Notes: generated by a model not told the origin, from the sequence alone. Positions 31,534 to 63,170 are shown, counted from the first letter of the stretch. The stretch: DNA of 64,000 nucleotides from Candidatus Microgenomates bacterium (GCA_003576945.1 QEVC01000001.1:26129-90128); one strand, 5' to 3'. Made by a program: numbers and translations.

Positions 31534-31580
31534 GAATATAGTATAAAGTACCAAGTAAAAAGTACCTAGTGTATGGGATT

Positions 31581-35087: not shown

Positions 35088-35135
35088 AGGCTAATTGTAA
35101 CATTGCATCTGGTGTGGTGTGGTAGAATTGGAAGA

Positions 35136-38100
35136 ATGAACAGTGGTGAGCAAGAAAGCAACAAGAAGAATAAAAAAGAGGCGGAAAAAAAGAGCCCGAA
35201 TGCCGTTGAAAGCAAGGTTTCGATCGAGGAATTGTTGTTGGTAGTATTTGCGAGAAGAAGTGTAGAACAGTTAAAGGTAACTCTTGAGAGTGGCCAAAAA
35301 ATTAGTGACGAGGCGATGAAGATGATTGTTAAAAGGGTGTCGGGAGAGATTGATAACCAGGAGCAGAAGGATTTGCTTGGATTAATTGTTAAGCAGGTTG
35401 AGGGTAAAAAAGATGAGAGAGATATGGCTCGAGACAACCTTGCAAAACTACTGCAATTGCAGGATGAGAACTTGGTGGGCAAGAAAAAAACTAGCAAAAA
35501 GAAAAATGCCAAAAGTGAAAAACCTAGTAAAGGACAAGAGACTGACGCCGAAAAACTGATTTCTTTTGTAACTAAGGACAAGAAAGACATTAATCGTGAA
35601 GGTATAAGCACAATTTGGGCTGATACCGCAAAGGAACTTGGGAGGTTAAAAGAGAAGAGTGGGGGTGATCAAATTCGTGCAATTGAGAGCGCTATACACT
35701 CTTCGATGGTGAATACCAAGAATTCAATCGAAAAAGGACTAAATGAGCCAATGTCAAAAGAGAACAAGGAAGATATCCTTAAAGAAACTAAAAATCTTTA
35801 TGACAAATACGCAGAGAAAAATCAGCGCAGAAATATTGCTAAGTTGGGGTGGAGAGAGAGACAAGATTTAAAACGTGACAATATTGTCATCGGTCGAGGA
35901 ATGAAGATAGTTAATGATTTTGTCGAAATTGCTGGAGACGAAAAGAAGGTTAAAGATCTATTCAAAAAAAAGACACAAAAAGATTATCTGGAGCTATTCG
36001 CATTTATGGATCTAATGGAAGAAAAAGCTGACACGGAAAATTTTGCGGAACTATATGAAGTTTCAAGGCGGATACAGGAATCTTGGGATCAGAATATCGT
36101 AGAGGAAACTAGGGAAAGTTCTAGGAAACTTACAGATGAAGATAGACAGGAAGTTAAGAAGCGCGTGAAGAAGCAGGAAATACCAGAGCTTGAACGAGTA
36201 GAAGACATGGTGAACTGGTTAATCGACAACAACGTTTTAAATGACGAGATGGCTAGTAGGATGAGTGAGGAGCAGATCCTAGACTTTTATCGGAACCTAA
36301 AAGATACTTTAGAGATGCGGGCTAGCGGATACTCGATTGGTGGCGGCGCTGAGCGATATCGCAATGTCGATTATGCAAAATATTTGCCAGAGCTTAATGA
36401 GGCAATAAAAAAGAAATGGCGCGAAGCAGGTCTTGATGTTGGTAAGTTGGGAGAGGCAATTCCCGACATAGAGGCAATATTGAACGGGTCGAAAGATGCG
36501 TTTGTAAATACGAATTTACCACTAGAGGCTAAAAAAATACTTGAGGATGTAATATTTCAGGAACTTTTACAGGGGGCCAGGGTTTTGGTTAGTGAGTCAG
36601 TTGATCGAAACATGATGTATTACGATAATCGGGCGACGAAATACCTCACCCTCTTAGCTTTGAGAGGACTAGATACTACCCTAAAAGATACGGTCACTAA
36701 CCACATGATATTACAGCAGTTATCTTTTGCGTGGCGCAATGGCTACGTGGATGAAGAATTGTATGGGAAAGTAATGGATTTTTGGTCGAGACAAGGACCA
36801 GAGTACCGTTTATTTGAAGAGATGAAGCGGAATGAAACGGTATTGATTAAAGACAAAGAAGGTAAAGAGGTCTTAGTTTCGCTAGAGTTAAACATGCACG
36901 ATTTTGAGGGGACAATGGCTCAGAATGTGGCAGATGAGGATAAAGAAGCGGTGGGAATGCCATTAGATATAGATAGATCCTGGGGAACTGTCGCCGCGCG
37001 GAAAACAGAAAAAGAATCAATGAAGTCTGATCGAAGAGTCCTTACTCGACGAGCCCTGATTAATAAATATGGAATAGACGAATATAATCGGTTGGCAAAG
37101 AAAGCTGGTGGAGAGGAAAACCTAGTAGGTCAAATCGTTGACAACTACGGAGATTATATAAACAGGGTATATCTTTACTGGATTGGTACAGGACGACTTG
37201 GCGAGATAGTGGGTAACGCATCGTTTGATAACAACAAGTTTGATTTACCACAAGGCATTCCAGAGTATTATATGAAACGTGATCCAAGATTGTTAGTTTG
37301 GTTTTTGTGGAAGTACACACCAGTACGAGTGCCAGAGGCGCTTTTTGGTTTAGCTCGGATGGGACTTCCCTCGTTCCATGCCGCAAACAAGGGCGAGAGT
37401 GCAGCACATTTTATAGGTACTAGAGACACAACAGAGGGCGGAGCTGGGTCACGTCGAGCGTTTTACGACAACAATAGCGATAAGTTTACCAGCGTCCAAC
37501 TAGATAAGTTTTCGGAGAAGTTTGCAAAAGTATTTAAAAAAGCATTGTATAACGATGACGAGTTTACATATAGTGAGAAGAATCCCTATTTTAAAGCGAT
37601 TTCTCACTTGCAATCGGATAAGTATAACCCCCGACGAAACAATACTGAGACTATAGATATACTATTGGGCTTTGAGGCTACTGAAAAAGATGATAACTTC
37701 TTTGAGGCAATATCTTGGGAATGGGCTAAATTACATTATTCCCACGACAAACAGCTTGTTAATTTCTTAAATTCCAAAGCTAGTGGTCGCGATAAATTTA
37801 AGTTTTTTGCTAAACGATTTAATGACGGATTCTTCTTAACGACTGCGCTTAAGGCTAAGCGGGGAGATGATGCCAAGAAATATAGATTCAACTATCAGGG
37901 CGAGGACATGAAAGCGGTTATTGAATACGCCAATAACCCCGAGCCTGAGAACTTAATGAAGATATTGTCAATTGTGGCGAGTATTGTAGGGGACGAAATT
38001 GGTGAGGCGCGTGACGCTAATCTAGAGATAGCGTATGAAATACTTAAGGAGCGGGAGGTTGGAGAGGCATTAGATGTTATTAAATATAATGGGGGGTCGG

Positions 38101-38588
38101 TGGCATTTAGTAATAAAGATTATGTCGGGGCAAATAAGGGCGAGTTCCCATTACCAGAAATGACGAAAGTTCCACATAACCCGCTTGACAAAGACATTCC
38201 CACTCATAGTACGGCGGCATATCGTGGACTAGAGCATAAAGTGTATGAGGGGGAAATGTTAATGAAGGTATTAATGCGCAATGCGAGGGCGGCTAATCTA
38301 TATAGAGACGACCATGAATATCGAGAAAAGCGAAAAGAAGCAAAATTGGAATACTTTAAGGAATCTTTACCACGACTTCATTGGGATAACAAGATTGCGT
38401 GGTACTGGAATGTTCTGAATAACGGAAAGCATTTATGGGATGTAGTGACCTTTAAGAAACTTACAAACTATATCGCGATAGAGATATTCCAATTACCACC
38501 CCACTTATTCTGGGAGTGGCTTTTTGAAAATAGTGAAAAATCATGGGAAACTACCATGAAAGTTTTTGCAGGACACGGTGGTCACTAA
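35136..38588 (+). CDS. Giant hydrophilic protein of unknown function (about 1150 aa, Lys/Glu-rich N-terminus)
   Basis: Uninterrupted ORF. The start is moved to ATG 35136 (MNSGEQESNKK). No TM, Walker or nuclease motifs recognised. Divergently transcribed from the CHAP-protein operon. Confidence 0.45.
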   Translation: MNSGEQESNKKNKKEAEKKSPNAVESKVSIEELLLVVFARRSVEQLKVTLESGQKISDEAMKMIVKRVSGEIDNQEQKDLLGLIVKQVEGKKDERDMARDNLAKLLQLQDENLVGKKKTSKKKNAKSEKPSKGQETDAEKLISFVTKDKKDINREGISTIWADTAKELGRLKEKSGGDQIRAIESAIHSSMVNTKNSIEKGLNEPMSKENKEDILKETKNLYDKYAEKNQRRNIAKLGWRERQDLKRDNIVIGRGMKIVNDFVEIAGDEKKVKDLFKKKTQKDYLELFAFMDLMEEKADTENFAELYEVSRRIQESWDQNIVEETRESSRKLTDEDRQEVKKRVKKQEIPELERVEDMVNWLIDNNVLNDEMASRMSEEQILDFYRNLKDTLEMRASGYSIGGGAERYRNVDYAKYLPELNEAIKKKWREAGLDVGKLGEAIPDIEAILNGSKDAFVNTNLPLEAKKILEDVIFQELLQGARVLVSESVDRNMMYYDNRATKYLTLLALRGLDTTLKDTVTNHMILQQLSFAWRNGYVDEELYGKVMDFWSRQGPEYRLFEEMKRNETVLIKDKEGKEVLVSLELNMHDFEGTMAQNVADEDKEAVGMPLDIDRSWGTVAARKTEKESMKSDRRVLTRRALINKYGIDEYNRLAKKAGGEENLVGQIVDNYGDYINRVYLYWIGTGRLGEIVGNASFDNNKFDLPQGIPEYYMKRDPRLLVWFLWKYTPVRVPEALFGLARMGLPSFHAANKGESAAHFIGTRDTTEGGAGSRRAFYDNNSDKFTSVQLDKFSEKFAKVFKKALYNDDEFTYSEKNPYFKAISHLQSDKYNPRRNNTETIDILLGFEATEKDDNFFEAISWEWAKLHYSHDKQLVNFLNSKASGRDKFKFFAKRFNDGFFLTTALKAKRGDDAKKYRFNYQGEDMKAVIEYANNPEPENLMKILSIVASIVGDEIGEARDANLEIAYEILKEREVGEALDVIKYNGGSVAFSNKDYVGANKGEFPLPEMTKVPHNPLDKDIPTHSTAAYRGLEHKVYEGEMLMKVLMRNARAANLYRDDHEYREKRKEAKLEYFKESLPRLHWDNKIAWYWNVLNNGKHLWDVVTFKKLTNYIAIEIFQLPPHLFWEWLFENSEKSWETTMKVFAGHGGH

Positions 38589-38618: not shown

Positions 38619-40127
38619 CTATTTTTTACTAGCAAGATCTTTTATTCCTGCCGCCATTTGTTTTTGGTAATCGAGCTGTCTTGTTGCTTCGCGTTGGTGT
38701 TCTAGGCTTGTCTTCCAGCCATAGGCTGTCTTACCTAGTGCCATGGCTCCACCTAAGCCAGCGCCGATCTCGCTGGTGTATGGAGATTCTTTGACCTGGA
38801 GCCAGTCCATCGCCATCTTGGCAGCGGCGGGGGTCATGGTAAAGATAAAGAATCCGATTAGTCCCATTAGATCGTTGGCTTGGAGATCAGTACCAGTAAG
38901 GGTGAAGGGTGGGAGCCACATCGCGCCATCGTCTCCTGTTTGAGCATAGAAAGAACTACTACTATCGATACCAAATGGATTACCATCGACACCAAAAGCG
39001 CCGGTGTTCCAGAGCGTGGATTTGGAGGGATCACCGACAAGTATGGCGGCAAAAATAAACATAGCGGCGACTACTGGGAAGGGGAGGAGATAGCTAGCAG
39101 TTTTTTTGAGCCATTCGGAGAAGGCTTTGCTACCAGGCATGGCGTTCATGAGGATTTGGATCGGAGCGGTTACTGTCTGGATAATTAACATTACATAAGC
39201 TTTGACTAAGACAAAGAGCAGCTTAATCATTGTGACTCCGAGCCAGACTGCGGCGATAAGGGCGGAGGGGGAGAAGATGGCGACCCCTTTGCCAATAAAT
39301 CCAGTTAGGCCATCACCAACACCTGAGAGGAGCCTGTCAGAGGCAGCGGCGACTGCCCAGATGACACTATTACGGCCAGAAAAGATTACACTCCACGCTG
39401 ATCCACCCAAGAGACGACTAATTGCGTCGACGGGAGTTCCAATAATACCAATAGTGCTGAGTAGATAAACCAGGAAATAGATCAGAAAATACATGATGTC
39501 GATCATAAAGCCGACTATGGCATAGCTAAAAGTGATAAGAAGGAGAGTGATTAGGAGGTTGGGGAGTGCGGCTTGGATAGTGATGACAGTCTGAGCATTA
39601 ATTTTGGTTCTGAGCATGATCATGATACCTACCACCACAAACATTACGATATAAAGTGCGTAGGCGACGTTGCGAAAACCTTTCCAGAATTCGAGAAACG
39701 GTCCCATGGCGGCATACCCAGTACCTTGAGCGTAGGCGCGTGGAGCCAGAGTGGGGAGACCAATATTGTTGGCAATGTCAGCTAGATATTGTTGACTAGT
39801 GATCCCGTTTTGAAACAGAGAAGCCACCATTTTTCCCGACTGTGGTAGGAGTGCTGCAGTATTACAATTTTTACCGCTCGCATCTTGTAATCCACCAATC
39901 ATAAGAACTGGGGTAGCGATAAGAGTAATGGGTTGGCGCCCTGGTTTGTAGTCACTCTCACCACCATCTGTTTCATATTCACTGAGATCACAGTTGCCAA
40001 CACTACCAAATTCGTATTTAAAAAGATTGTTTGGTGTATTACCAGATACATCAGAAATTGATGCATGTGTGGATTGTGGTATAGCTAAAGTAAGTATTAC
40101 ATAAGCCAGAAGGAGAAATTTTTTCAT
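38619..40127 (-). CDS. Polytopic membrane protein with signal peptide (VirB6/TrbL-like candidate)
   Basis: 502 aa with signal peptide MKKFLLLAYVILTLAIPQSTHA and at least 6 TM helices. The assignment is by position. Confidence 0.45.
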   Translation of the reverse strand: MKKFLLLAYVILTLAIPQSTHASISDVSGNTPNNLFKYEFGSVGNCDLSEYETDGGESDYKPGRQPITLIATPVLMIGGLQDASGKNCNTAALLPQSGKMVASLFQNGITSQQYLADIANNIGLPTLAPRAYAQGTGYAAMGPFLEFWKGFRNVAYALYIVMFVVVGIMIMLRTKINAQTVITIQAALPNLLITLLLITFSYAIVGFMIDIMYFLIYFLVYLLSTIGIIGTPVDAISRLLGGSAWSVIFSGRNSVIWAVAAASDRLLSGVGDGLTGFIGKGVAIFSPSALIAAVWLGVTMIKLLFVLVKAYVMLIIQTVTAPIQILMNAMPGSKAFSEWLKKTASYLLPFPVVAAMFIFAAILVGDPSKSTLWNTGAFGVDGNPFGIDSSSSFYAQTGDDGAMWLPPFTLTGTDLQANDLMGLIGFFIFTMTPAAAKMAMDWLQVKESPYTSEIGAGLGGAMALGKTAYGWKTSLEHQREATRQLDYQKQMAAGIKDLASKK

Positions 40128-42433: not shown

Positions 42434-45312
<2,879 letters not shown>

Positions 45313-45316
<4 letters not shown>

Positions 45317-45666: not shown

Positions 45667-46020
45667 TTAGTAAGCAGTTGGAGGAGTGATGTTGTCGTTG
45701 AGGATCGAGATACCAAAGAAGTATTGGATGATCAACATGACGGCCCAGGCGGAGGCGACGACGGCGAGACCGACGAGTGCAGCGGTGATACGATCGCGCG
45801 CTTCTTGGGTTTTACCTTTATCTCCACCACTAGTGATCCATTGAATACCACCCCAGATGAGGTACATAAAGACGAGGAGCGCAGAGACGAGGAGAGCGCC
45901 TTGGACGGCACCTTTGATCAACGTTCCAATATTGGTGATTGCGACGTTATCTGGCTTGCCGATTGAGAGATCTGGAGCAGCTGGTGCAGCCATAACTTTT
46001 TCAACGATTGAGAATGACAT
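45667..46020 (-). CDS. Small two-TM pilin-like protein, array member 2
   Basis: ...YLIWGGIQWITSGGDKGKTQEARDRITAALVGLAVVASAWAVMLIIQYFFGI. Confidence 0.5.
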   Translation of the reverse strand: MSFSIVEKVMAAPAAPDLSIGKPDNVAITNIGTLIKGAVQGALLVSALLVFMYLIWGGIQWITSGGDKGKTQEARDRITAALVGLAVVASAWAVMLIIQYFFGISILNDNITPPTAY

Positions 46021-46040
46021 ATTTATCTCCTTATGTATTA

Positions 46041-46069
46041 GTACTTAGTACATAGTACATGGTACATGG
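46041..46069. repeat. GTACATAG-type 8-nt periodic repeat immediately upstream of array member 2
   Basis: gtacttagtacatagtacatggtacatgg. Related copies at 22235-22250, 46811-46833 and 53188-53216. Confidence 0.5.
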
Positions 46070-46109
46070 TTATAATTCTAGTATTTCTGATTATAGCAAT
46101 AATATTAAG

Positions 46110-46454
46110 TTATTTGGTAATCCCAATACCAAAGAAGTAATCGACGAGCAGATAGACTGCCCAAGCTGAGGCGACGATGGCGAGACCAACAATTGCCTGA
46201 GTGATTTTGTTCCTGGCCTCCTCGAGCTTGCCTTTGTCGCCACCGGCAGTGATCCAGTTGATCCCGCCGTAGACGAGATACATAAACGTGGCTAGACCTG
46301 CAACCAAGATCACTGCTGAGAAACTACGTGAGACAAAGGTTCCTAGATCTTCATTAATTGCTACCCTAGACTTAACCTGATCGTCGACGTTGATCGCAAA
46401 ACTACCACCTTGGGCGGATGCAGTTTTGATTAGTTTTAAAGTTGTAAAGTCCAT
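46110..46454 (-). CDS. Small two-TM pilin-like protein, array member 3
   Basis: ...YLVYGGINWITAGGDKGKLEEARNKITQAIVGLAIVASAWAVYLLVDYFFGI. Confidence 0.5.
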   Translation of the reverse strand: MDFTTLKLIKTASAQGGSFAINVDDQVKSRVAINEDLGTFVSRSFSAVILVAGLATFMYLVYGGINWITAGGDKGKLEEARNKITQAIVGLAIVASAWAVYLLVDYFFGIGITK

Positions 46455-46467
46455 AAAGTTTTTGAAG

Positions 46468-46863
46468 CTACCCTGCGGTAGGCCAGATAATATTTAATAA
46501 ATCAAGTCCGATGGCAGACTCGATAAACTTAACTACGACGTAGCTGGCTGCTAGGACAGCTAGACCAATTAATCCCTGGGTGATTTTGGCTCTACTCTCG
46601 TCAAGTTTACCCTTGTCGCCACCAGCAAGGATCCAGTTGAGTCCACCCCAAAGAAAGTAGAGAAGGAAGGCTAGTCCACCAACAATTATAATGGTTTGCC
46701 AGAGAGTGGCCATGGTAATTGCGAATTGTTGGGGCGCACTGTCGGGTGATTCTCCACCTGGAATTGCAGTGTTGGTGATCGCGGCGCGCGCGAGAGGGGC
46801 ACGAGAAGATAGTACATAGTACGTGGTACATAGCTGGAGGAAAATGATCTGTTTAAGTTTCAT
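46468..46863 (-). CDS. Small two-TM pilin-like protein, array member 4 (with signal peptide)
   Basis: MKLKQIIFLQLCTTYYVLSS... then YFLWGGLNWILAGGDKGKLDESRAKITQGLIGLAVLAASYVVV. Confidence 0.5.
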   Translation of the reverse strand: MKLKQIIFLQLCTTYYVLSSRAPLARAAITNTAIPGGESPDSAPQQFAITMATLWQTIIIVGGLAFLLYFLWGGLNWILAGGDKGKLDESRAKITQGLIGLAVLAASYVVVKFIESAIGLDLLNIIWPTAG

Positions 46864-46865
46864 AT

Positions 46866-47228
46866 TTAATTAAAGGTTAGTCCTTGAATAAGCACGCCGG
46901 GCTCGAGGATGTTAAGACCGAGGGCGGCACTCACGATCCAGGTGATGGAGTAGGAGAGAACGATAATAATTAAACCAATGGCGCCGCCAGTCATCATGCC
47001 TTTGGCCTTGTCAATTTTGCCTTTGTCACCACCGGCAGTAATCCAGTTAAGACCTCCCAAAAGAAAGTAGAGAACAAATGCGATTCCCGCAATAACAGTT
47101 AAAACTACAAGAGTGTTACTGATTAGTTTTTCGACAGCACTAGTACTACCATCGATGCCACCACCAGGTTGATAGCCGCCGGGAGTGGTGATGGTTTGAA
47201 AATCTAAGGCTTTGACTTTGGTAATCAT
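46866..47228 (-). CDS. Small two-TM pilin-like protein, array member 5
   Basis: ...YFLLGGLNWITAGGDKGKIDKAKGMMTGGAIGLIIIVLSY. Confidence 0.5.
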   Translation of the reverse strand: MITKVKALDFQTITTPGGYQPGGGIDGSTSAVEKLISNTLVVLTVIAGIAFVLYFLLGGLNWITAGGDKGKIDKAKGMMTGGAIGLIIIVLSYSITWIVSAALGLNILEPGVLIQGLTFN

Positions 47229-47234
47229 AGGTTA

Positions 47235-47570
47235 TTAAAGACTCCCGGGGCCAGTAATACTAGGTGTTAGGATGGCACCAGCGTTGTTGAATAATAGAAA
47301 AGAGACGACACCAGTGACTGCGGCAGCGCCCACCATAATAATTAGACCAAGGAGAGACATATTGATTGAGTACATGGCCGCTTGAATTTTTTTCTCGTCA
47401 CCACCCGCGGTAATGTAGGTAAAACCAGCGATCATGAGATTGAAGAAAGCATAAAGTCCGGCGGCGGCAAAGATGACGGTAATAACATTACTCACAAAAC
47501 TGGGAAGACCGGTGTCGACGTTGCCGTAGCCGGTGATGGGACTATCGATGCTACCAAAGACGCCTGCCAT
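47235..47570 (-). CDS. Small two-TM pilin-like protein, array member 6 (divergent)
   Basis: ...FNLMIAGFTYITAGGDEKKIQAAMYSINMSLLGLIIMVGAAAV. Confidence 0.45.
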   Translation of the reverse strand: MAGVFGSIDSPITGYGNVDTGLPSFVSNVITVIFAAAGLYAFFNLMIAGFTYITAGGDEKKIQAAMYSINMSLLGLIIMVGAAAVTGVVSFLLFNNAGAILTPSITGPGSL

Positions 47571-47574
47571 AATT

Positions 47575-47877
47575 TTATAAAATCTCTAGTCCGGTGACGA
47601 TTTGGATAATTTGAATTATCCAATACGACCCGAAGACAACTAATAAACCCATTATAGCAAAAGTAATAGTTTTTTTACCCTCCTCCATCTTGTGAGCATC
47701 GCTTGCACCGCTAATTACATTAAAGCCGCCAAGAATAAACATAAAAAAAAGTACTAGTCCGGCGGCAACATAAACATTAGGAAGAATGGCGTTAATTAAG
47801 TCGCTCGCACTGCTGTAGGTGGAATCAGCACCACTACCTTGGAAAATTAGCTTTTCACCCAGATTAAAGCCAGCCAT
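47575..47877 (-). CDS. Small two-TM pilin-like protein, array member 7 (divergent), first gene of the array
   Basis: ...FMFILGGFNVISGASDAHKMEEGKKTITFAIMGLLVVFGSYWIIQIIQ. Confidence 0.45.
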   Translation of the reverse strand: MAGFNLGEKLIFQGSGADSTYSSASDLINAILPNVYVAAGLVLFFMFILGGFNVISGASDAHKMEEGKKTITFAIMGLLVVFGSYWIIQIIQIVTGLEIL

Positions 47878-48675: not shown

Positions 48676-48987
48676 ATGAAGAAGTCGGTTTTAGTTCTTT
48701 GGATGAGTTATGTCTGGGGGACGACGCTCGCAGGTTTGGCAATTCATCCATATCAGTCGATCAGGAGAATTGTATTAACCAAGCGAATATTATTACCAGT
48801 TACCTTGTCACCAGTACTGGGGTTAGTTGTTTTATTTGTGGTTGGGAGAGTGGGGAGCTACGTGTTTACACTTGGAGCGTGGGGAAGAGAGATGATGGCT
48901 TTGGTTTTGGGGAGCACGCTCATTGGGTTGTTGATGTGGCAAGGGTTACTACTCCTATTGGTGTGGCGTTTTTGGCGTGTGCGTTAG
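48676..48987 (+). CDS. Small polytopic membrane protein
   Basis: Start moved to MKKSVLVLW. Three hydrophobic helices. Confidence 0.3.
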   Translation: MKKSVLVLWMSYVWGTTLAGLAIHPYQSIRRIVLTKRILLPVTLSPVLGLVVLFVVGRVGSYVFTLGAWGREMMALVLGSTLIGLLMWQGLLLLLVWRFWRVR

Positions 48988-49346
48988 AGGTGATCGACGA
49001 TGGCGGTTTCGCCAAAGTATCCCAATTTCAGTAGTAGCTTGTCTCGTGTGAGAAAATATTGACATTTTCCCTGGGTTGCGGAGTGAAGTTGAATGTTGTC
49101 TTCTAGATCATTGGTTGGACCAACAAGAGCACGTTGGAGGATGATATTAGACAAATTTACGACACCTATGTTTTTTAGAAGTATGTCGATTTCCATGGAA
49201 GGGACGTTGGTTTTTGTTGCGTAACATAAGATGTGGCAAGAGAGAGGGGAGATGTATAGCTTGTGGTCTGTAAGTTCTGTTATTTTGCCCGTATCGCGCC
49301 TAAATAGGTCGATCAGGATGTTGGTGTCAAGATATATGCTTGCCAT
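48984..49346 (-). CDS. PIN-domain toxin (VapC-like)
   Basis: MASIYLDTNILIDLF...LTRDKLLL match conserved PIN acidic-residue positions. Confidence 0.65.
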   Translation of the reverse strand: MASIYLDTNILIDLFRRDTGKITELTDHKLYISPLSCHILCYATKTNVPSMEIDILLKNIGVVNLSNIILQRALVGPTNDLEDNIQLHSATQGKCQYFLTRDKLLLKLGYFGETAIVDHL

Positions 49347-49593
49347 ATTTTTTTTGGATATAGTCGTCGTAGTTCTTCTTTCTTTGTGCGTCAGAAATTT
49401 TGTTAGTTTTGAGATTTTTGGTGAGTTCTAGATATTTTTTACCATCAAAAGGCCGAGCAGGCTTATCTTCTGGAGGAGAGATAACGCCAAGGACTTGGGA
49501 GCGATGAATCAACTGGACAGAGTGGCCTGCCATGAGTGCATCAACCAGGACGGTAGTATTAGTTCTAAGCTGGGTAGTGGTTATGAAGTTCAT
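49327..49593 (-). CDS. Phd/YefM-type antitoxin
   Basis: MNFITTTQLRTNTTVLVDALMAGHSVQLIHRSQVLGVISP fits the Phd/YefM N-terminal pattern. Overlaps the PIN gene by 20 nt. Confidence 0.5.
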   Translation of the reverse strand: MNFITTTQLRTNTTVLVDALMAGHSVQLIHRSQVLGVISPPEDKPARPFDGKKYLELTKNLKTNKISDAQRKKNYDDYIQKKYGKHIS

Positions 49594-49672
49594 ATACACT
49601 TAAATATACATTTAAATGTATATTTGTCAAGTTGGGCGAATGGTTTTGGTGTAAGTAGGCGACTAATAGGGT

Positions 49673-49894
49673 ATGAGTGGATGGGAAATTCCAAGACATT
49701 GGAGATTAAAGAAACAAAGATATTCTTTGGTGGGGAAAGTCTGTCCACACTGTGACCACAAAATATTCCCCCCAAGGGATGTGTGTCCAAACTGTGGAGC
49801 GGAGGCACATGTGACTATCGCGACAGTTGCTGCAGACGAAAAAGGAGACACAACCCTAGCGCTTGCTTTGAGACAAAACGTAGTCCCCGAATGA
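49673..49894 (+). CDS. Small zinc-ribbon protein (CPHC...CPNC)
   Basis: KVCPHCDHKIFPPRDVCPNCGAEAHV, a four-Cys ribbon. Immediately upstream of idi. Confidence 0.35.
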   Translation: MSGWEIPRHWRLKKQRYSLVGKVCPHCDHKIFPPRDVCPNCGAEAHVTIATVAADEKGDTTLALALRQNVVPE

Positions 49895-49923
49895 TTTTAT
49901 TTAATTTAGCGACTTAACTTTTT

Positions 49924-50517
49924 ATGCAGAACGTAGACTACAGCGTATATGAAGGGAGAAGAGTCGTTTTGGTGGACGAAAACGATAACGAGATTGGAAC
50001 AGAGGATATTTTGATAGCTCATCAGGGGAGTGGCAAGAAACATAGGGCATTGTCAGTGATACTTTATCGAAAAGTTGATGGGAAGATTGAGATCCTGATG
50101 CAGAAGAGATCTGGAGGTAAACCCGTTTTTCGACATTTATGGAGCAATACTTGTTGTACCAACCTGAGTCCTGGTGACACCTATATCGAGCGAGCGGTGT
50201 CACGACTAAAGGAGGAGATGGGAATAGAAATTAGACCAGATAGCTTGAAGACTTTGTATAGATTTAGCTACGAGGCGTTGGACCCCACCAACCCAGGTTG
50301 GTGCGAGAACGAGGTGGATACGATGATAGTGGGCGAATGGGATCCTTCGACAAGCTCAGGACAAGTTGGAATGAAATTAAATCCAGCAGAGGCTGAGGAT
50401 GCTAGGTGGATGGAGATAGAAGAAATGAGAGCGGATATGGAGCGAAACCCTGAGACTTATTCGCCTTGGCATAAATTAATTATTAATGATCCACGATTTG
50501 TGGAGGAGGTAGTATGA
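49924..50517 (+). CDS. idi: Isopentenyl-diphosphate delta-isomerase, type 1 (Nudix fold)
   Basis: HRALSVILYRK...LWSNTCCTNLSPGD...WCENEVDTMIVGEW matches the type-1 IDI signatures (TNTCCSHP / WGEHE-like). Confidence 0.65.
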   Translation: MQNVDYSVYEGRRVVLVDENDNEIGTEDILIAHQGSGKKHRALSVILYRKVDGKIEILMQKRSGGKPVFRHLWSNTCCTNLSPGDTYIERAVSRLKEEMGIEIRPDSLKTLYRFSYEALDPTNPGWCENEVDTMIVGEWDPSTSSGQVGMKLNPAEAEDARWMEIEEMRADMERNPETYSPWHKLIINDPRFVEEVV

Positions 50518-50765
50518 GCGGCAGAACTTTTGCTGAAGCACTTAGAGAATTTAATTTAGACATAACTATAAATGCGGCGGTGCGACCTTTTAACCTATTT
50601 GTGGAAAGTGAGCAGGGTTCAATTTTGGTAACTCGAAAGGAAGTAGGAGGTCCATATGTGGCATATATAGATGGGAGAGAGTTCCCTGCTGTGTCTGATG
50701 GTGGGAAAGGTGTTGGCGTTGATGGTGTTTTTCATTTTTCATTGGAAGATAATCCACTAGGCTAA
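50514..50765 (+). CDS. Hypothetical small protein
   Basis: ORF only. Start overlaps the idi stop. Confidence 0.3.
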   Translation: MSGRTFAEALREFNLDITINAAVRPFNLFVESEQGSILVTRKEVGGPYVAYIDGREFPAVSDGGKGVGVDGVFHFSLEDNPLG

Positions 50766-50766
50766 T

Positions 50767-51048
50767 ATGTATAAACATATTGAAGGTGTGGTGGCGGTTC
50801 CAGTGACTAGAGATGGAAAAATCTTGATCATTAAGGATGGTGAAAACACAGGAAAGTCTGAGAAACTAGGATGGGATAGGGTTGGAGAGAGGAAGTCGAT
50901 TGAAGGATTAATGCAGTTTGTTGGTGGAGTTTGCGAAACTGACGATTTAATTGGAGAGCTAGTTAGAGAGGGATTTGAAGAGACCCAAATTCAATTTGCT
51001 CAAACTGATTTTGTTGAGTCGGGAGTTGGCACACTAAATAGACCATAA
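50767..51048 (+). CDS. Hypothetical small protein
   Basis: ORF only. Starts 2 nt after the previous stop. Confidence 0.3.
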   Translation: MYKHIEGVVAVPVTRDGKILIIKDGENTGKSEKLGWDRVGERKSIEGLMQFVGGVCETDDLIGELVREGFEETQIQFAQTDFVESGVGTLNRP

Positions 51049-51252
51049 GAGGGCAAATGGTGAGGTTATGATGGTAGGAGTAAGTATATATTGGTTGTTG
51101 TTAAGTGAAGAAACGGAAAGATTATTAGTGGGGAATGGGGCAGTTAAAATGACGGACGAACTACAGTTAAGAGAACGAGATATGATCATATATGGTTTGG
51201 TGAAAGATAAAGTTTCGGAAGTTATACTAGTTGAAAACTAATAGGAAATTAT

Positions 51253-52047
51253 ATGAAACGACTAATAATGGTGAAGCTAGGAGGCGGAGTAATCACAGAT
51301 AAGAACGTGCACTATGGATTGCGGGAGGATGTGTTATCCAGACTAGCTAGGGAGATAGCGGAAGGGTATCGAGAACTAGGGGAGACTAAACTAATTATTG
51401 GGAACGGGGCGGGGAGTTTTGCCCATTTTTCGGCGCATAAATACCGGACGACCGAAGGATTTGTAGATGAGAACTCGCGTATTGGGATGGGGTGGGTGCG
51501 ACACGATGCGGTTAAACTCAACCAAATAGTATGTGAACAATTATTGTCAGCTAATGTCCCGGTTTTCTCCTATTCACCATCATCTTTAATGAGCATAGAT
51601 CAGCGAAAAACGAAGAAAATATTTATTGATCCAGTGGTAGATGGTTTAGCGATGGGGATAGTGCCATTAGTTTATGGGGATGTAATGGTAGACGAGACTC
51701 GTGGATGTGATGTGTATTCGACTGAACGAGTGTTTGACGAGCTAGCGACTGTTTTTGCCAAAGATTATCGGGTACGAGTAATCCATGTGAGCGCAGAGGA
51801 GGGGGTTTATAAAACTGGACAAGCAAGCATTTTTGATGTTATTGATGCCGGTAATTTTAATGAGGTTAAGCAACACCTGGGAGGTTCGAAAGGAGTAGAT
51901 GTATCTGGGGGGATGTTGCACAAAGTAGAGGAGTGTCTGGCTTTAACAAAACTAGGAGTCGAGAGTTTAATAGTGAGTGGGATGATTGAGGGTAGAGTAA
52001 GGGATAGTATATTAGGAAAAACAGTTGAGGGGACAAAAATATGTTAG
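51253..52047 (+). CDS. Isopentenyl phosphate kinase (amino-acid-kinase fold)
   Basis: MVKLGGGVITDKNVHYGL...LIIGNGAGSFAHFSAHKY is the amino-acid-kinase-family glycine-rich loop in an IPK-like arrangement. Confidence 0.6.
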   Translation: MKRLIMVKLGGGVITDKNVHYGLREDVLSRLAREIAEGYRELGETKLIIGNGAGSFAHFSAHKYRTTEGFVDENSRIGMGWVRHDAVKLNQIVCEQLLSANVPVFSYSPSSLMSIDQRKTKKIFIDPVVDGLAMGIVPLVYGDVMVDETRGCDVYSTERVFDELATVFAKDYRVRVIHVSAEEGVYKTGQASIFDVIDAGNFNEVKQHLGGSKGVDVSGGMLHKVEECLALTKLGVESLIVSGMIEGRVRDSILGKTVEGTKIC

Positions 52048-52706
52048 ACCAAGCCAATATTCCAAATCATATTGCCATAATAATGGATGGAAATAGAAGA
52101 TGGGCTAAGGCCAAGGGCCTGCCAGTTATTGCAGGGCATGCCTACGCGGTAGAGAAGACCGTTGAAGAGTTGATAGAGCGCACGGGTGAGCTGGGAGTAG
52201 AGTATCTGACACTCTGGGCATTTTCGACTGAGAACTGGGGGAGAGCGAAAGATGAGGTGGCGGGCTTGATGAACCTGTTTAGGAAAGCGTTGGAAACTAA
52301 GGTAGGCAAGTTTATTGAGAAGGGGGCGAGACTTAAATTAATCGGGGATATGAGCAGGTTTAGTCAGGATATCCAGGAAGGGATGATGAGAGTGATGGAA
52401 AAGAGCAAGCAGAATACTAAAATTACTGTGAGTTTTGCCCTTAATTATGGGGGGAGAGATGAGATAAAGCGGGCAGTGGAAGTTGGGGGAGTAGATTTTG
52501 AGAAACATCTGGATACTTACGCTATGCCGGAGCCAGATCTGATTATTAGAACAGGAGGGGAGCAGAGAACGAGTGGGTTTTTGATGTGGAGTGGGGCGTA
52601 TGCGGAGTGGTATTTTACTGACCTACTATTCCCTGACTTTACACCACAAAAATTAGATTTGGCGATCGAGGAGTATCAAAAGAGGCAGAGGCGGTTTGGG
52701 AAGTGA
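52041..52706 (+). CDS. uppS: Undecaprenyl-diphosphate synthase (cis-prenyltransferase)
   Basis: HIAIIMDGNRRWAKAKGL...LTLWAFSTENWGRAKDEV...RTGGEQRTSGFLMW. Confidence 0.85.
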   Translation: MLDQANIPNHIAIIMDGNRRWAKAKGLPVIAGHAYAVEKTVEELIERTGELGVEYLTLWAFSTENWGRAKDEVAGLMNLFRKALETKVGKFIEKGARLKLIGDMSRFSQDIQEGMMRVMEKSKQNTKITVSFALNYGGRDEIKRAVEVGGVDFEKHLDTYAMPEPDLIIRTGGEQRTSGFLMWSGAYAEWYFTDLLFPDFTPQKLDLAIEEYQKRQRRFGK

Positions 52707-52856: not shown

Positions 52857-53249
52857 TTACCCAACAATGTCAATTTTGAAGACAACCTGGAGGATCTGGG
52901 CGATCCAGAAGGCGAGAAAGATTACGGCAAAACCAATGAGGGCGCTAGTAATAGTTTTTTTACCTTTTTCCTGGGCTTCTTTATCAGCCGCACCAGCGAG
53001 CATAGTAAAGCCGCCAGAGACGAGCATGCCAAAGAGAATAATCCCAGCGAGGGTTAGGAGCGTGGGGAGAATAGAGCTAATAATACTCCCTAGATTTCTG
53101 GTGTCGACAGATCCACCCCCAAGACCAAGGGCATTTTCGTAGGCACCGTAGTCAGCAAAGTCGGCTGCTCGTGCTTGAGGAACGAGAGTACATAGTACAT
53201 AGTACATAGTACATAGTTGAAAAGAGATATTTTTTAATTTTTTATTCAT
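52857..53249 (-). CDS. Small two-TM pilin-like protein (eighth paralogue, with signal peptide)
   Basis: MNKKLKNISFQLCTMYYVLCTLVPQARA... then MLVSGGFTMLAGAADKEAQEKGKKTITSALIGFAVIFLAFWIAQILQ. Confidence 0.5.
   Translation of the reverse strand: MNKKLKNISFQLCTMYYVLCTLVPQARAADFADYGAYENALGLGGGSVDTRNLGSIISSILPTLLTLAGIILFGMLVSGGFTMLAGAADKEAQEKGKKTITSALIGFAVIFLAFWIAQILQVVFKIDIVG
53188..53216. repeat. (GTACATAG)x3.5 tandem repeat encoding the signal-peptide core LCTMYYVLC
   Basis: Seen directly. Confidence 0.55.
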
Positions 53250-53251
53250 GA

Positions 53252-53668
53252 TCAGTTAAATCCTGGTAATTGAATGATATCACCCGCCACAATCCGAAGC
53301 AGGGTGACTGAGAAGATGATAAAGAGAAGTCCGGTAATCGCGCTAGTAAAGAGTTCTTTGCCTTTTTTTACCTGTTCGGCGTTATCGCCACCTGTCATAA
53401 TCTGGATGGTGGCAATGAGCATAATAACGAGCGAGATGGCGCCGGCGGTACCGGCGAGGAACTTGAGGAGCGAGACAGTAAAACCTTTAGTTTCAACGCT
53501 TAAACACCCAAGCGCAGTATCAACTGCGGTGTCGCCACAATCACCGTTTGGATTGATGGCGTGAGCGGGTGAGGAAAGAGCGGAAAAGGAGATTAAGACC
53601 GAAGCTAAGATGGTCGCGAGATATGTTAGGATAGAGACATGGTTTCTCTCTGGAAAAAGCTTTTTCAT
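53252..53668 (-). CDS. Secreted two-TM protein ending in IIQLPGFN (LPGF module; VirB2/TrbC-like candidate)
   Basis: Signal peptide, two Cys, then LLKFLAGTAGAISLVIMLIATIQIMTGGDNAEQVKKGKELFTSAITGLLFIIFSVTLLRIVAGDIIQLPGFN. This is homologous to the C-terminus of the 960-aa protein. Confidence 0.5.
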   Translation of the reverse strand: MKKLFPERNHVSILTYLATILASVLISFSALSSPAHAINPNGDCGDTAVDTALGCLSVETKGFTVSLLKFLAGTAGAISLVIMLIATIQIMTGGDNAEQVKKGKELFTSAITGLLFIIFSVTLLRIVAGDIIQLPGFN

Positions 53669-56036: not shown

Positions 56037-56267
56037 ATGGAAACACTCGCATTTTTGGATGGTTTGAGTTTAATGTTATTTGTGAAGTTTTTGCTTGTCA
56101 CACTCCTAGCGATTTATGCGATTTTTGCGCTACTAATGATGAAGCAAATTAATGCGATGACAAGAGCGGTTACAATGCAAGATGACTATATTATTCGTGG
56201 TTTGGGAGCGCTGCATTTTGGGTTTGCAGTCATGGTGTGGATACTATCTTTGCTCCCAGCCGCATAG
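56037..56267 (+). CDS. Small two-TM membrane protein
   Basis: METLAFLDGLSLMLFVKFLLVTLLAIYAIF... Start chosen at the internal ATG. Confidence 0.3.
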   Translation: METLAFLDGLSLMLFVKFLLVTLLAIYAIFALLMMKQINAMTRAVTMQDDYIIRGLGALHFGFAVMVWILSLLPAA

Positions 56268-56284
56268 ACAAGAGTGTTATAAAA

Positions 56285-58069
56285 ATGATAACCACAAATG
56301 CCCATAGTTTGGTTGGAAGCTCGACGAAAAACTCTTGGTCTCAAGCGCAGAGTCTAACAAATAATCATCAAACAGTTTCATTAGTTATTAACTTGAAGAT
56401 TTTGGGAGAGGAGGGGGTAATCGACTTGGCATCGATTGGTGGAGCTATTTTTGAAAAATTTCACGAGCAGGGCAAGATGTATCGGACACCAGTGGAGTGG
56501 CAAGAATTTCTCGAGAGTGAACTGGGTGATGTGACCCACGAGGTAGAAGTTTCGGTTGTAGTTGTTTGTATTTATGACGAGACTGTATGGCTTTGGGGGA
56601 AGGGCAAAACTGGGGCAAGACTATATCGTGAGGGTCGCTTTATCACACTAGTAGAGGGAGATAAATGGGAAGAGGGATTAGCGGGCACAATTACACATAA
56701 TGACATTCTAATTATAGGGACAGAGAAGGGGATAGAGACCAGTACAGAACCTCATTTAATGGAAACGATTAAGAGTGGGGTCTTAAACTATATCGAAACA
56801 TTGGCACCCTTGATTCACTTACGCCCAGAACAAGCAGAAATGGCAATGGTAATGCTCGAATGCATTGCTGATAGTGATAGTGACGGCCGCGAATTGTTGC
56901 ATGAGGCTAAGAATCCAAATATATTAACCAAGAAAAAATTCCCAGAGATTGTGGTTAGAAGAATGAGAGAAGAACCAAGAAAGTTTAACCTTCTACTTGG
57001 TTCGATGTTGGGAGTGATACTGATAATCCTAATCATCACCGGTGCATATGTGAGGATTGAGAAAAAGGCAAAAAGTGAGTATGAAACAGCTGTGAGTCGC
57101 TCAGAAAATATGATTAGAGAAGCTGAGGATGTGGCGGAGAGCAACCCAGAGCGTTCCAAGATACTAATCTCACAGAGCATAGAAGTCCTAGAACTATACC
57201 TTGCCACCAGACCTAAGTCTAATTATGAAGCAGCAGCGAAGAGTGGTCTCGAAAGGATTAGGAATAAGGAGCAGGAAATTTTGAAAGTAAGAGGAACAAC
57301 ACTTTCGCCAACAATCGAACTTTCACTCTTATCAGAGAATTTAAAAAGTGATCAAATCGTGGATGATGGCAGTGGGTCTATGTACTTTTGGGACGACAGT
57401 AGCCGAAGTATTGTGGGTGTTTCGGTAAAAGATCTTTCGAAAGTGACTTTTAATGTAGAGAACGAAAGGTTTGTGAGACCATTTAGCACAAGAGATGGGG
57501 TATATACTGGCTTTTCGGCGGGAGGGATTTGGAGTGGGAGTAAGAGTGAACAAAAAGTTGTAGTTCCTACGGATTCTGAGTGGGGGGAGATATCGCAAGT
57601 TGCGACTTTTGGGAACAACATTTATTTATTAGACAGAGGGTTGGGTGAGATCTGGAAATATGCCGCGACTGATACGGGCTACGCTGAGAGAAAGAGGTGG
57701 TTTGGCAAGGGGATAGTGCTTGATCTATCGAGGGTGGTCGACTGGGTGGTAGATGGCGATATCTGGCTACTGACTAGTAGTGGAAAACTGGAAAAGTATT
57801 CGAGGGGAGTTCCAGCCAACTTTGTCCTTACCGGGTTTCCGAGTGAGAGCGAGACGGGTGGGTTGGTTGACCCAATCGCACTGAGCATAGTGGATGACAA
57901 GATTTATGTCCTCGAAAGGGGAGCTAAGCGAGTAGTGACGTTTGGACTGGATGGCAAGTATGTGGAGCAGTATGTGTCAGAAGATTTTGGGAGAGCGAGC
58001 GACTTGATGGTGTACGAGGGTAAGGGCTACGCACTAGTGGACAATGTGATAAAGGAGTGGGAGCTGTAG
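56285..58069 (+). CDS. Hypothetical protein with a central TM (cytoplasmic N-domain, extracytoplasmic beta-rich C-domain)
   Basis: About 595 aa with a TM at LLLGSMLGVILIILIITGAYV. No motif recognised. Confidence 0.35.
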   Translation: MITTNAHSLVGSSTKNSWSQAQSLTNNHQTVSLVINLKILGEEGVIDLASIGGAIFEKFHEQGKMYRTPVEWQEFLESELGDVTHEVEVSVVVVCIYDETVWLWGKGKTGARLYREGRFITLVEGDKWEEGLAGTITHNDILIIGTEKGIETSTEPHLMETIKSGVLNYIETLAPLIHLRPEQAEMAMVMLECIADSDSDGRELLHEAKNPNILTKKKFPEIVVRRMREEPRKFNLLLGSMLGVILIILIITGAYVRIEKKAKSEYETAVSRSENMIREAEDVAESNPERSKILISQSIEVLELYLATRPKSNYEAAAKSGLERIRNKEQEILKVRGTTLSPTIELSLLSENLKSDQIVDDGSGSMYFWDDSSRSIVGVSVKDLSKVTFNVENERFVRPFSTRDGVYTGFSAGGIWSGSKSEQKVVVPTDSEWGEISQVATFGNNIYLLDRGLGEIWKYAATDTGYAERKRWFGKGIVLDLSRVVDWVVDGDIWLLTSSGKLEKYSRGVPANFVLTGFPSESETGGLVDPIALSIVDDKIYVLERGAKRVVTFGLDGKYVEQYVSEDFGRASDLMVYEGKGYALVDNVIKEWEL

Positions 58070-61269: not shown

Positions 61270-62628
61270 TTATGGTACCTTTTTGCAAAAACTCACAAAC
61301 TCCTCTTTCGTCAAAGTTTTTTCTATACCCAAAACAAACTGGAATATACGCCAGCTATCATCACGCAAAATAGGTAAATAGAAGATTTGATTGGTGAGTT
61401 TAGAAGCTTGTTTATACGCTTTTTTCAATTCTTCTAGCTTTGTTTTATAGATATTATTATCAAATCCTCCCGTCATACCGGATGAAATATTGACGCTTTT
61501 TACTTCAAAAATATGTACCCGATCAAAACTATCCTTCATCACAAAGTCGGGATAAGAAGAATGCACCGCACCGAGATAATACTCAAATTTTATCGGCGAG
61601 TTAGCTACATAATTTTTCCCCCACAAATACACCTGTTTCTCTTCTAAAAGTGCCGACTCTTCTTTGCCGAATATATTAGTTGCTCCCGCCTTTGGATTCT
61701 TTTTGCCAACTGTTACTCTTTTGCCAACTCGTCCATCACCAACCGCCAAATCATCTTTTGCCAAATCTTTTAGTACTTCCGTCCACTCCCGCTCTGCCTC
61801 ACTATCAAAAGCAAATTTGTCTTTCCCGTCGTTTCGCTTCCACACCCAGTCGCCGATATTCACATAATTGCCGTTATCCGTATAGTGAGAAGTTGGCGCA
61901 AAAGACACTTCTACCTCTTGTCCTCTTTCATCTTTCACCACCTCCATACTCTTTTCGTAGTCGTTCACATATTTACTGCTTTCACTCGCCACCGCTTCTA
62001 TGTTTTCCGCACAGACACGCCAAGTATCATAATTATCCGCATATACCACCGCCATTTCTCGTACGCCATTTTCAACTTTTGCCATATCACGCCATAACGT
62101 AAAAATAGAACTGGGCGCAGATACAGCAGGTTGCTCCTTCAAGAATGCTGCCAAGTTAAAGTCCGCTTTTTTTGTTAACGGCTTTAGCCGTGTCGTTTTA
62201 ATCTTGATCTCATCGGTAATAGCCTTGCTCTCCTGCCAGAGCTTCACTCCAAAAGTCTTTTGTATCTCTTGCGGTACAATACCCCACACCCACGCTGTCA
62301 TAGCAAGTTGTTGCGCTTCTTCAGAAAGCGTTTCAAAATCCAAAAGCCGAGGGTTGCGCCTTACACGCCCCATCACTTGTTCGTCAAGTTGCTTACTCTT
62401 ACTATCGCGCATCTGATAGAGCATGCAGGCGCGCGGAATATCCCAGCCTTCAGTAATCACCATTTTGAAAATGATGATATCAATGGTACTAGATTTGGCA
62501 TAGTCCTTCCATTTGCTCACCGGCAGTTTTTTTGCCTTGAAAGTATCGTTAGTGTCGCATTCTTTATCATTGTTTACGATGAGCATCCATTTCAAATTCG
62601 TGTGTTCAGCCTTCGATACTTGACCCAT
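61270..62628 (-). pseudogene. Truncated type III restriction enzyme Res subunit (C-terminal half: helicase motifs V-VI plus PD-ExK nuclease domain)
   Basis: VITEGWDIPRACMLY (motif V) and GRVRRNP (motif VI) sit near the N-terminus of the ORF, with no motifs I-IV upstream. The C-terminal HIFEVKS is an ExK-type nuclease motif. The 5' end abuts the IS200/IS605 left end. Confidence 0.5.
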
Positions 62629-63170
62629 CCGACCGTTAGGTCGAGTGAGGGAGTTACCCCTGTTTCGGCGGGAGTCGTACCAAAGCTAGTAGAATAGGGA
62701 GGTATGGAATTTACCCACCTATCCCATTGCCTCTACCACTGCGAATACCACATAGTTATCACCACCAAGTTTCGGAAGAAAATCTTTAACGAGGGAATTT
62801 TTGCCTACTTTGATATTAAGTTGGCGGAAATAACCGAGCACTATCCTTTGATCAGGTTCCGAAAAGTGAACCATGATCGTGATCACATCCACCTTCTAGT
62901 CTCCATTCCGCCAACAATGAACGTGGGGAGAGCAGTAGGGATCATTAAACAGAATACCGCTCGGAATCTCAAACAAAAATTCCCGTTTCTCAAAGACGTG
63001 TACTGGGGGACTGAAGCAGTGTGGTCGGAAGGCTACTTTGCTAGTACCGTGGGAGCTAACGAGTCAATCATCAAACGCTATATAGAAAATCAGGGTAAGC
63101 AAGAAACAGGGCAAGCTACGCTTGAACTAAATTAACCCCGCGACCGTAAGGTAGTCGGTGATTTAGCGTC
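62629..63170 (+). mobile_element. IS200/IS605-family insertion sequence (tnpA only) with subterminal hairpins
   Basis: Left hairpin CGACC-GTTA-GGTCG at 62633-62646, right imperfect hairpin CGAC-cgtaaggta-GTCG at about 63143-63159, flanking the tnpA ORF. Confidence 0.6.
62704..63135 (+). CDS. tnpA: IS200/IS605 Y1 (HuH) transposase TnpA
   Basis: YHCEYHIVITTKFRK...HDRDHIHLLVSIPP (HuH motif) ...YWGTEAVWSEGYFASTVG (catalytic Tyr region). Confidence 0.85.
   Translation: MEFTHLSHCLYHCEYHIVITTKFRKKIFNEGIFAYFDIKLAEITEHYPLIRFRKVNHDRDHIHLLVSIPPTMNVGRAVGIIKQNTARNLKQKFPFLKDVYWGTEAVWSEGYFASTVGANESIIKRYIENQGKQETGQATLELN

Follow-up and report, generated by a model that had tools for sequence, protein, structure and literature searches.

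A probable late-step isoprenoid operon with a variable cassette and a DUF35-type zinc ribbon in a Candidatus Microgenomates bacterium

Isoprenoid biosynthesis in bacteria of the Candidate Phyla Radiation (CPR) was surveyed by Hoshino & Gaucher (2018, PMC6107057), who reported that most Microgenomates carry enzymes of the mevalonate (MVA) pathway with an archaeal-type thiolase and that CPR MVA genes are typically syntenic with the gene for a cis-isoprenyl diphosphate synthase (cis-IPPS). In the same survey, isopentenyl phosphate kinase (IPK) was found in CPR bacteria, mostly Microgenomates, where it is syntenic with type-1 isopentenyl diphosphate isomerase (IDI-I or IDI-1) and cis-IPPS even in species without most MVA genes; these IPK homologues were called 'enigmatic' and their function uncharacterised. 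A passage of that paper, citing Dellas et al. (2013), infers for Chloroflexi an alternative mevalonate pathway I, in which mevalonate kinase (MVK) and phosphomevalonate decarboxylase are followed by IPK, and in plants IPK and Nudix hydrolases together set the ratio of isopentenyl phosphate (IP) to isopentenyl diphosphate (IPP), as summarised in a passage of PMC8248349 that cites Henry et al. (2015, 2018). Here we describe a gene cluster at positions 49673-52706 of a 64,000-nucleotide stretch of the genome of a Candidatus Microgenomates bacterium (GCA_003576945.1 QEVC01000001.1:26129-90128), the whole of which is hereafter called the window. With a probability of roughly 0.7, we read this cluster as a late-step isoprenoid operon typical of Microgenomates, in which a DUF35 remnant is followed by IDI-1, a variable cassette, IPK and the cis-prenyltransferase UppS. 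The core arrangement was already published in 2018 (PMC6107057) and the window provides a further example of it; a ribbon-only DUF35 stub, an alternation of MVD (decarboxylase) and Nudix cassettes among close relatives, and a frameshift such as the one described below were not found in the text of that study.

Seven open reading frames (ORFs) on the + strand are packed across the cluster in an operon-like manner, with a 4-nt overlap between the IDI stop and the start of the next ORF (o83), 1 nt between the o83 stop and the start of the following ORF (o93), and a 7-nt overlap between the IPK stop and the UppS start. The first-pass annotation had described a zinc-ribbon gene, idi, IPK and uppS in this place, and these ORFs are indeed present on the + strand at the coordinates given here, their families being recognised far beyond chance. 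It had also counted two tiny ORFs between idi and IPK; there are actually three (83, 93 and 57 aa), the last two of which are the halves of one Nudix-fold gene. The features of the locus are as follows.

49673-49894, + strand: DUF35-type zinc ribbon ORF (73 aa; PF12172 match)
49924-50517, + strand: type-1 IPP isomerase (IDI-1), Nudix fold (197 aa; NF002995 and TIGR02150 are the best NCBIfam matches)
50514-50765, + strand: o83, orphan ORF, first gene of the variable cassette (83 aa; no Pfam or NCBIfam match)
50767-51241, + strand: Nudix-fold gene disrupted by a frameshift, as two ORFs, 50767-51048 (o93, 93 aa, 5' half) and 51068-51241 (57 aa, 3' half)
51036-51038, + strand: site of a 1-nt insertion in a run of A (CTAAATA here, CT-AATA in relatives)
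51253-52047, + strand: isopentenyl phosphate kinase, IPK (264 aa; NF040647)
52041-52706, + strand: UppS, cis-prenyltransferase (221 aa; TIGR00055 and PF01255)

The IPK shares 100% identity with a protein recorded for 'Candidatus Microgenomates bacterium'. The same locus is present in several independent assemblies, including GCA_021404865.1 and the Logan assemblies of SRR8109493, SRR8109491 and ERR10655382, and a promoter and terminator scan of the operon gave nothing reliable above background. A scan of 185,579 species genomes yielded 80 related loci, the ORFs of which were called and clustered (these loci are labelled L001 etc.). IPK and UppS are adjacent in about 47 of these 80 loci, and IDI is found in about 35; an IPK identity of 71-93% to that of the window defines the narrow clade nearest to it. 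IDI, IPK and UppS show dN/dS values of about 0.04-0.09 where dS could be estimated, synonymous sites being saturated in the other comparisons.

The 264-aa protein matches the NCBIfam model for isopentenyl phosphate kinase (NF040647) with 175.4 bits against a cutoff of 120, while the rival models FosC (48.8 bits, cutoff 350) and FomA (42.2 bits, cutoff 550) stay far under their cutoffs and ProB and ArgB reach only about 15 bits. A PDB search with a profile built from 24 homologues finds the IPK structures 8u0k, 3ll9, 7lnt and 3k4o at E-values of 1e-52 to 1e-55, as compared with 5e-21 for FomA and about 1e-6 for the acetylglutamate kinases (NAGK). The first-pass annotation had left room for a better alignment to another subfamily of amino-acid kinases; none was found, and by family the protein is predicted to be an isopentenyl phosphate kinase. 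In the 24 homologues K8, G10, G11, G54-S55-F56, H58, G142-D143, D216-V217, G219-G220 and K224 are invariant and align to 8u0k, so that the N-terminal KxGG loop and the GSF(A/G)H (GSFAH here), GD and DV(S/T)GG..K motifs are all kept. H58 is presumably the catalytic histidine and the motifs presumably serve catalysis and nucleotide binding, roles that we take over from the IPK structures of M. jannaschii and T. acidophilum. Where dS is estimable, the dN/dS of IPK against sister species is about 0.04-0.08. IPK homologues 39-40% identical to that of the window also occur in many Nostoc and Scytonema genomes, in one case on a plasmid (L053, L054, L058, L061, L066, L067, L070, L073, L075, L078, L080, L081, L083 and L084). 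Their context is unlike the CPR operon, with a DNA methyltransferase-like gene and a DnaB-like helicase and mostly without an adjacent IDI or UppS.

For the 197-aa protein, NF002995 (110.8 bits, cutoff 127) and TIGR02150 (88.9 bits, cutoff 105.8) are by far the best NCBIfam matches, and all 13 of its sequence matches in the PDB are IDI-1. Aligned to the E. coli and Salmonella enzymes (1i9a and 3hyq), it keeps the positions of Cys67, Glu87, Tyr104, Glu114, Glu116, Trp161, His25 and His32, and has Asn in place of His69. This Asn lies in the motif NTCCTN and is shared by other CPR IDI proteins, while L062 keeps His. In the E. coli numbering, Cys67, Glu116, Tyr104 and Trp161 are presumably the catalytic residues and His25, His32, His69, Glu114 and Glu116 the metal ligands. 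UppS matches TIGR00055 with 229.8 bits (cutoff 109.55) and, over residues 14-220, PF01255 with 236.5 bits. Judging by the families and by the catalytic residues that are kept, we infer that IPK would phosphorylate IP to IPP, that IDI-1 would equilibrate IPP with dimethylallyl diphosphate (DMAPP), and that UppS would extend an allylic primer, which a trans-prenyltransferase encoded elsewhere would supply, to a long cis-polyprenyl diphosphate, from which the lipid carrier needed in wall and glycan synthesis would presumably be made. Most likely, the operon thus turns IP into IPP and DMAPP for a polyprenyl lipid carrier.

Within the narrow clade nearest to the window, the slot between IDI and IPK occurs in three states. 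In L006, L010 and L085, an ORF of 53-87 aa (c81) and a 328-aa MVD-family decarboxylase are found exactly between IDI and IPK; in the window and in L086, L088, L008 and L005 the slot holds an orphan ORF of 78-83 aa and a Nudix-fold protein of 148-166 aa, of which L009 has the Nudix-fold protein only; and in L007 the slot is empty. DNA homology between the window and L010/L085 is restricted to 49688-50510 and 51252-52704, that is, it breaks off at the end of IDI and sets in again where IPK begins. That the slot is a decayed MVD gene was ruled out, since a tblastn search of the slot with the MVD-like protein and with c81 returned only noise (E>2 for MVD). The change is a cassette replacement and not decay, and the slot is a swappable cassette in which the MVD-family decarboxylase of close relatives is the presumptive IP-forming enzyme. 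This sister protein matches PF22700, PF18376 and TIGR01240 (232-235 bits). The NCBIfam models do not separate phospho- from diphosphomevalonate decarboxylase in its case: the model matched is the generic one for diphosphomevalonate decarboxylase (DPMD, TIGR01240), and the haloarchaeal MvaD model gives 150 bits against a cutoff of 475. In the more distant CPR loci L025, L028, L040, L042, L051 and L064, MVK, the MVD-like gene and IPK are adjacent and in this order, and in archaeal loci AcnX, UbiD and UbiX are found with IPK. The orphan o83 has a counterpart of 81 aa in the same position in L008, with 54% identity (pN 0.29 versus pS 0.82), and 78-aa counterparts were called in L086 and L088. It has no Pfam or NCBIfam match, and among 1.8 billion representatives, searched exhaustively, only about five small relatives turned up, plus weak repeats.

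The second gene of the cassette is broken in this species. An extra A at about position 51036 is the only indel relative to L086 across the Nudix gene, the sequence being CTAAATA in the window and CT-AATA in L086, L088 and L008. Because four further assemblies of the species (L001-L004) carry the same 1-nt insertion and the truncated 93-aa product occurs on 20 contigs, this is a genuine recent frameshift. A programmed frameshift at 51036 was considered and rejected, as inspection by eye showed no recognisable slippery motif, and the change is read as a plain 1-nt insertion in a run of A. Intact orthologues of 154-157 aa are found in L008, L086 and L088, and the repaired translation of the window gene is 85% identical to the intact 157-aa protein of L086. 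The window ORF matches PF00293 weakly (18.5 bits, below the cutoff of 21.1), the REx2EE core of the Nudix box being kept (GGVCETDDLIGELVREGFEETQI); of the full box (GX5EX7REUXEEXGU) the G, the RE and the EE are kept, with D for E and Q for G. An AlphaFold model of this intact L086 orthologue (pLDDT 83.6, pTM 0.81) matched 113 Nudix structures in the PDB at E<=1e-3, with RppH, MutT, ADP-ribose pyrophosphatase (ADPRase) and GDP-mannose hydrolase (GDPMH) matched equally and no subfamily preferred. The family is tiny and fast-evolving, comprising 19 proteins with 15-26% identity between subgroups; an iterative profile hidden Markov model of it drifted into IDI at round 2, which reflects the shared superfamily only, and the drift-free first rounds were used. 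Of the 80 related loci, 13 have a Nudix-fold gene other than IDI within the IPK cluster, and so do the window, L086 and L088. The window contains a second, canonical Nudix hydrolase (172 aa, PF00293 63.7 bits), which lies next to a Fic-domain protein (8021-8539 and 8544-9572, both on the - strand) and is unrelated to the cassette.

At the other end of the operon, in the 73-aa protein, an N-terminal helix motif (PRHWRLKKQRYSLVG) is followed by a zinc ribbon of the Cys4 type (CPHC...CPNC) and by a tail of 27 aa that is variable. The protein matches PF12172, the DUF35/ChsH2 zinc ribbon, with 42.3 bits (cutoff 23.2, E 6.5e-11). Its best match in the PDB is 6esq_E/6et9, deposited as 'Pfam DUF35', with residues 7-46 aligned to residues 3-42 of 130 (E 3.5e-7). 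We take chain E of 6esq/6et9 to be the subunit that serves as scaffold in the archaeal complex of thiolase and HMG-CoA synthase. The OB fold is absent from the 73-aa protein, which is not matched by PF01796 and ends 27 residues past the ribbon. The ORF is conserved in L005, L006, L010, L085, L086 and L088, with pN of 0.19-0.32 against a pS of about 0.7 (saturated), which indicates a real, constrained gene under purifying selection and not a dead remnant. Its position is also informative. In L045, L046, L065 and L072 the genes for HMG-CoA reductase (HMGR), an archaeal-type HMG-CoA synthase (HMGS; TIGR00748, 401 bits), thiolase, DUF35, IDI, optionally a Nudix protein, IPK and UppS follow each other, in full order in L065 and similarly in the others, and DUF35 is here a protein of 97 aa with an OB fold and without cysteines. 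The small ORF just upstream of IDI forms a decay series: helix and OB fold beside thiolase and HMGS; helix and Cys4 ribbon in the window and its clade; and helix only in L027, L030, L031, L071, L032 and L009. The resemblance of the ribbon to DUF35 suggested by the first-pass annotation is thus borne out by the Pfam match, the structural match and the syntenic position, and the ribbon protein is the N-terminal half of the mevalonate-type DUF35 scaffold, stranded where HMGR, HMGS, thiolase and DUF35 precede IDI in other CPR genomes. In the window, the genes upstream of the ribbon ORF encode a sigma factor, membrane proteins of small size and a PIN/antitoxin pair, and no thiolase or HMGS gene adjoins this ORF. 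Of the pair, the toxin (120 aa) has a PIN domain and overlaps a putative antitoxin of 90 aa; both are encoded at 48984-49599 on the - strand, flanked by a gene for a small membrane protein and by the ribbon ORF. A recent insertion is suggested by the absence of the pair at the same place from L086 and L088 (IPK 93% and 90% identical) and from the strain variants L003 and L004.

The source of the IP on which such an operon would depend was sought in the 64-kb window and in 10 kb beyond its left end (about 74 kb in total); on the right side, the assemblies of the species end at an IS200 element. Among the ORFs scanned in the window or in the 10 kb to its left there are no genes for thiolase, HMGS, HMGR, MVK, a decarboxylase or the methylerythritol phosphate (MEP) pathway, and neither an IP-forming enzyme (a phosphomevalonate or bisphosphomevalonate decarboxylase, or an AcnX/UbiD pair) nor MVK was found in these 74 kb. 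The locus encodes no IP source. The left extension, from the same species, carries ATP-citrate-lyase-like genes, GroES/EL, a UMP-kinase-like gene and GAPDH. In L089 (11427-14291), just left of window position 1, three adjacent genes of ATP-citrate-lyase/citryl-CoA type (Citrate_synth_N with Citrate_bind, Ligase_CoA and Citrate_synt) could be a source of acetyl-CoA in a small CPR genome; they are followed by GroES/EL, a second AA_kinase (238 aa) and GAPDH.

Beyond the locus, the decarboxylase of the sister species L010 was searched against a set of 5.8 billion proteins. Proteins of the window organism occur on about 20 database contigs (IPK on 21, o93 on 20), and among the best 120 MVD-like matches, which extend down to 43% identity, none has more than 6 contigs, and none could be assigned to the window organism. 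Of the four best matches of NCBI origin, three could be discarded as candidates, as they belong to other species (P0121, which is the L010 query itself, P0131 and P0151). The best named candidate, P0123, was likewise rejected, lying in its own syntenic IDI-MVD-IPK-UppS locus of another species, L085, the IPK of which is about 78% identical to that of the window. Across the clade there are 28 MVD-like clusters (>=64% identity) as compared with 75 IPK clusters (>=65%). These results argue, indirectly, that the species lacks a decarboxylase of the sister type, and it may still encode a divergent or non-homologous IP-forming enzyme. The earlier proposal that this bacterium makes IPP via isopentenyl phosphate is supported only in part: the locus carries genes for the steps from IP to IPP, from IPP to DMAPP and on to polyprenyl diphosphate, but no source of IP was found in the 74 kb, and the replaced decarboxylase slot points to loss of the IP-forming step from the operon.

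How the operon is fed can be explained in more than one way. We put at about even odds that the species has lost the decarboxylase and that IPK and IDI salvage or recycle C5 monophosphates, taken from a host or arising by hydrolysis of IPP and DMAPP. The principal competitor is a complete alternative mevalonate pathway, with thiolase/HMGS/DUF35, HMGR, MVK, phosphomevalonate decarboxylase and IPK, the missing genes of which would lie elsewhere in the genome. This is a possible but less probable account, and we lean modestly towards salvage or recycling over such an unlinked endogenous route. In favour of the complete pathway, and at the same time weighing against our reading of the locus, are several observations: the purifying selection to which the DUF35 ribbon is subject hints at a partner of the thiolase/HMGS type that may still be present, the ATP-citrate-lyase-like genes just left of the window suggest acetyl-CoA production, and an unlinked MVK, decarboxylase or other IP-forming enzyme may lie outside the 74 kb covered. 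Moreover, no MVK lies within 10 kb in those sister species in which the MVD-like gene is present; the upstream mevalonate genes of this clade are therefore unlinked, and the window species could have them too. MVA enzymes are found in most Microgenomates (PMC6107057), and other CPR loci link IPK to MVK and an MVD-like gene, or to HMGR, HMGS, thiolase and DUF35. Against our reading of the locus it also counts that no transporter or kinase for the uptake of isoprenol or IP was identified, that the IDI scores lie under the NCBIfam equivalog cutoffs with Asn at the metal-ligand position of His69, and that no trans-prenyltransferase was found in the 64-kb window. What speaks against the complete pathway is that the operon's own decarboxylase slot has been replaced, that none of the best 120 MVD-family matches has the roughly 20 contigs expected of this organism, and that MVA genes are absent from the 74 kb.

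Two further explanations concern the kinase and its neighbour. The cassette could point to an IP/IPP balancing pair as in plants, in which the Nudix hydrolase cleaves IPP, DMAPP or longer prenyl diphosphates to monophosphates and IPK re-phosphorylates them, the Nudix half having just been inactivated here. The recurrence of a non-IDI Nudix-fold gene in the IPK cluster, the kept REx2EE core and the fold confirmed by the model of the orthologue are consistent with this, as is the joint control of the IP:IPP ratio by plant IPK and Nudix hydrolases reported in a passage of PMC8248349; yet the fold search indicates no Nudix subfamily, the family is small and evolves fast, and the Nudix gene is broken while IPK is conserved, which implies that the function of IPK is independent of it. 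We therefore consider such a pair unlikely. Equally doubtful is the most far-reaching version of salvage, namely that an IPK-feeding decarboxylase was exchanged for an orphan and a Nudix gene by a clean swap, that DUF35 stub, IDI, IPK and UppS would now serve C5 prenyl monophosphate salvage in an episymbiont no longer making mevalonate-derived IP, and that Nudix and IPK would be the bacterial counterpart of the plant IP/IPP rheostat. Much less probable than any of these is that the 264-aa protein is not an IP kinase in vivo, being instead a resistance kinase like FomA or an enzyme that phosphorylates longer prenyl phosphates, in a cluster left over from a decaying pathway. Its secondary matches to FosC and FomA and the decay among its neighbours (the Nudix frameshift and the DUF35 truncation) could be taken in this sense, but the IPK model is above its curated cutoff where FomA and FosC are far under theirs, no other PDB structures match nearly as well as those of IPK, the catalytic residues are invariant, and strong purifying selection goes together with conserved linkage to IDI and UppS.

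The remainder of the window looks CPR-like, with sparse gene content and arrays of type IV secretion system (T4SS) pilins. It includes dnaA, dnaN, two YidC genes, a leucyl-tRNA synthetase (LeuRS) gene, genes for a VirB4/TraG-like ATPase and PrgI, T4SS-pilin-like arrays, SpoIID, SmpB and an IS200 transposase. The arrays, which encode T4SS-pilin-like (PF18895) membrane proteins of 100-138 aa on the - strand (45667-47877 and 52857-53668), stand on both sides of the operon, and this flanking is conserved in many CPR loci; the VirB4/TraG-like ATPase (27606-29540) and a PrgI-like protein (30502-31554) are encoded further upstream. dnaA and dnaN are located at 24920-27609, and the sign of the cumulative GC skew switches near 60 kb. 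An IS200-type Y1 transposase gene (62704-63135) lies where several independent assemblies of the species end. Several large ORFs (452-1176 aa) are without any Pfam match: 35058-38588 (+), 42434-45316 (-), 38619-40127 (-), 56237-58069 (+) and 61270-62628 (-).

Together with its close relatives, the window provides a natural comparison for the role of IPK, because near-identical operons differ only in the slot, which holds an MVD-family decarboxylase in some and an orphan with a Nudix gene in others. If it is true that species of the Nudix type are without any IP-forming enzyme, this would argue for salvage of isoprenoid precursors in CPR episymbionts, and it would bear on the use of CPR IPK in reconstructing ancestral mevalonate pathways.

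Compared with known systems, the locus is closest to the CPR clusters of Hoshino & Gaucher, with which it shares the taxon, the synteny of IPK with IDI-I and cis-IPPS (UppS) and an association with archaeal-type thiolase/HMGS in related genomes. It differs from them in being without upstream MVA genes, in its ribbon-only DUF35 stub, and in having an orphan and a broken Nudix gene where sisters have an MVD-family decarboxylase. Alternative mevalonate pathway I, which also occurs in haloarchaea, resembles the system in having IPK as the last step, and MVK, MVD-like and IPK genes are adjacent in related CPR loci; in contrast, the window is without MVK and decarboxylase, and the sister decarboxylase fits the generic DPMD model TIGR01240 and not haloarchaeal MvaD. 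To the archaeal thiolase/HMGS/DUF35 complex (6esq, 6et9) the likeness is confined to the helix and Cys4 ribbon, which align to DUF35 residues 3-42 (E 3.5e-7); the archaeal subunit, of 130 aa, carries an OB fold at its C terminus and its gene accompanies those for thiolase and HMGS, whereas the window locus is without the OB fold and both enzyme genes. Finally, the plant IPK/Nudix module likewise pairs IPK with a Nudix-fold protein in isoprenoid metabolism, the two genes being adjacent in one operon here, although orthology of the Nudix proteins is only putative and the gene is frameshifted in the window genome.

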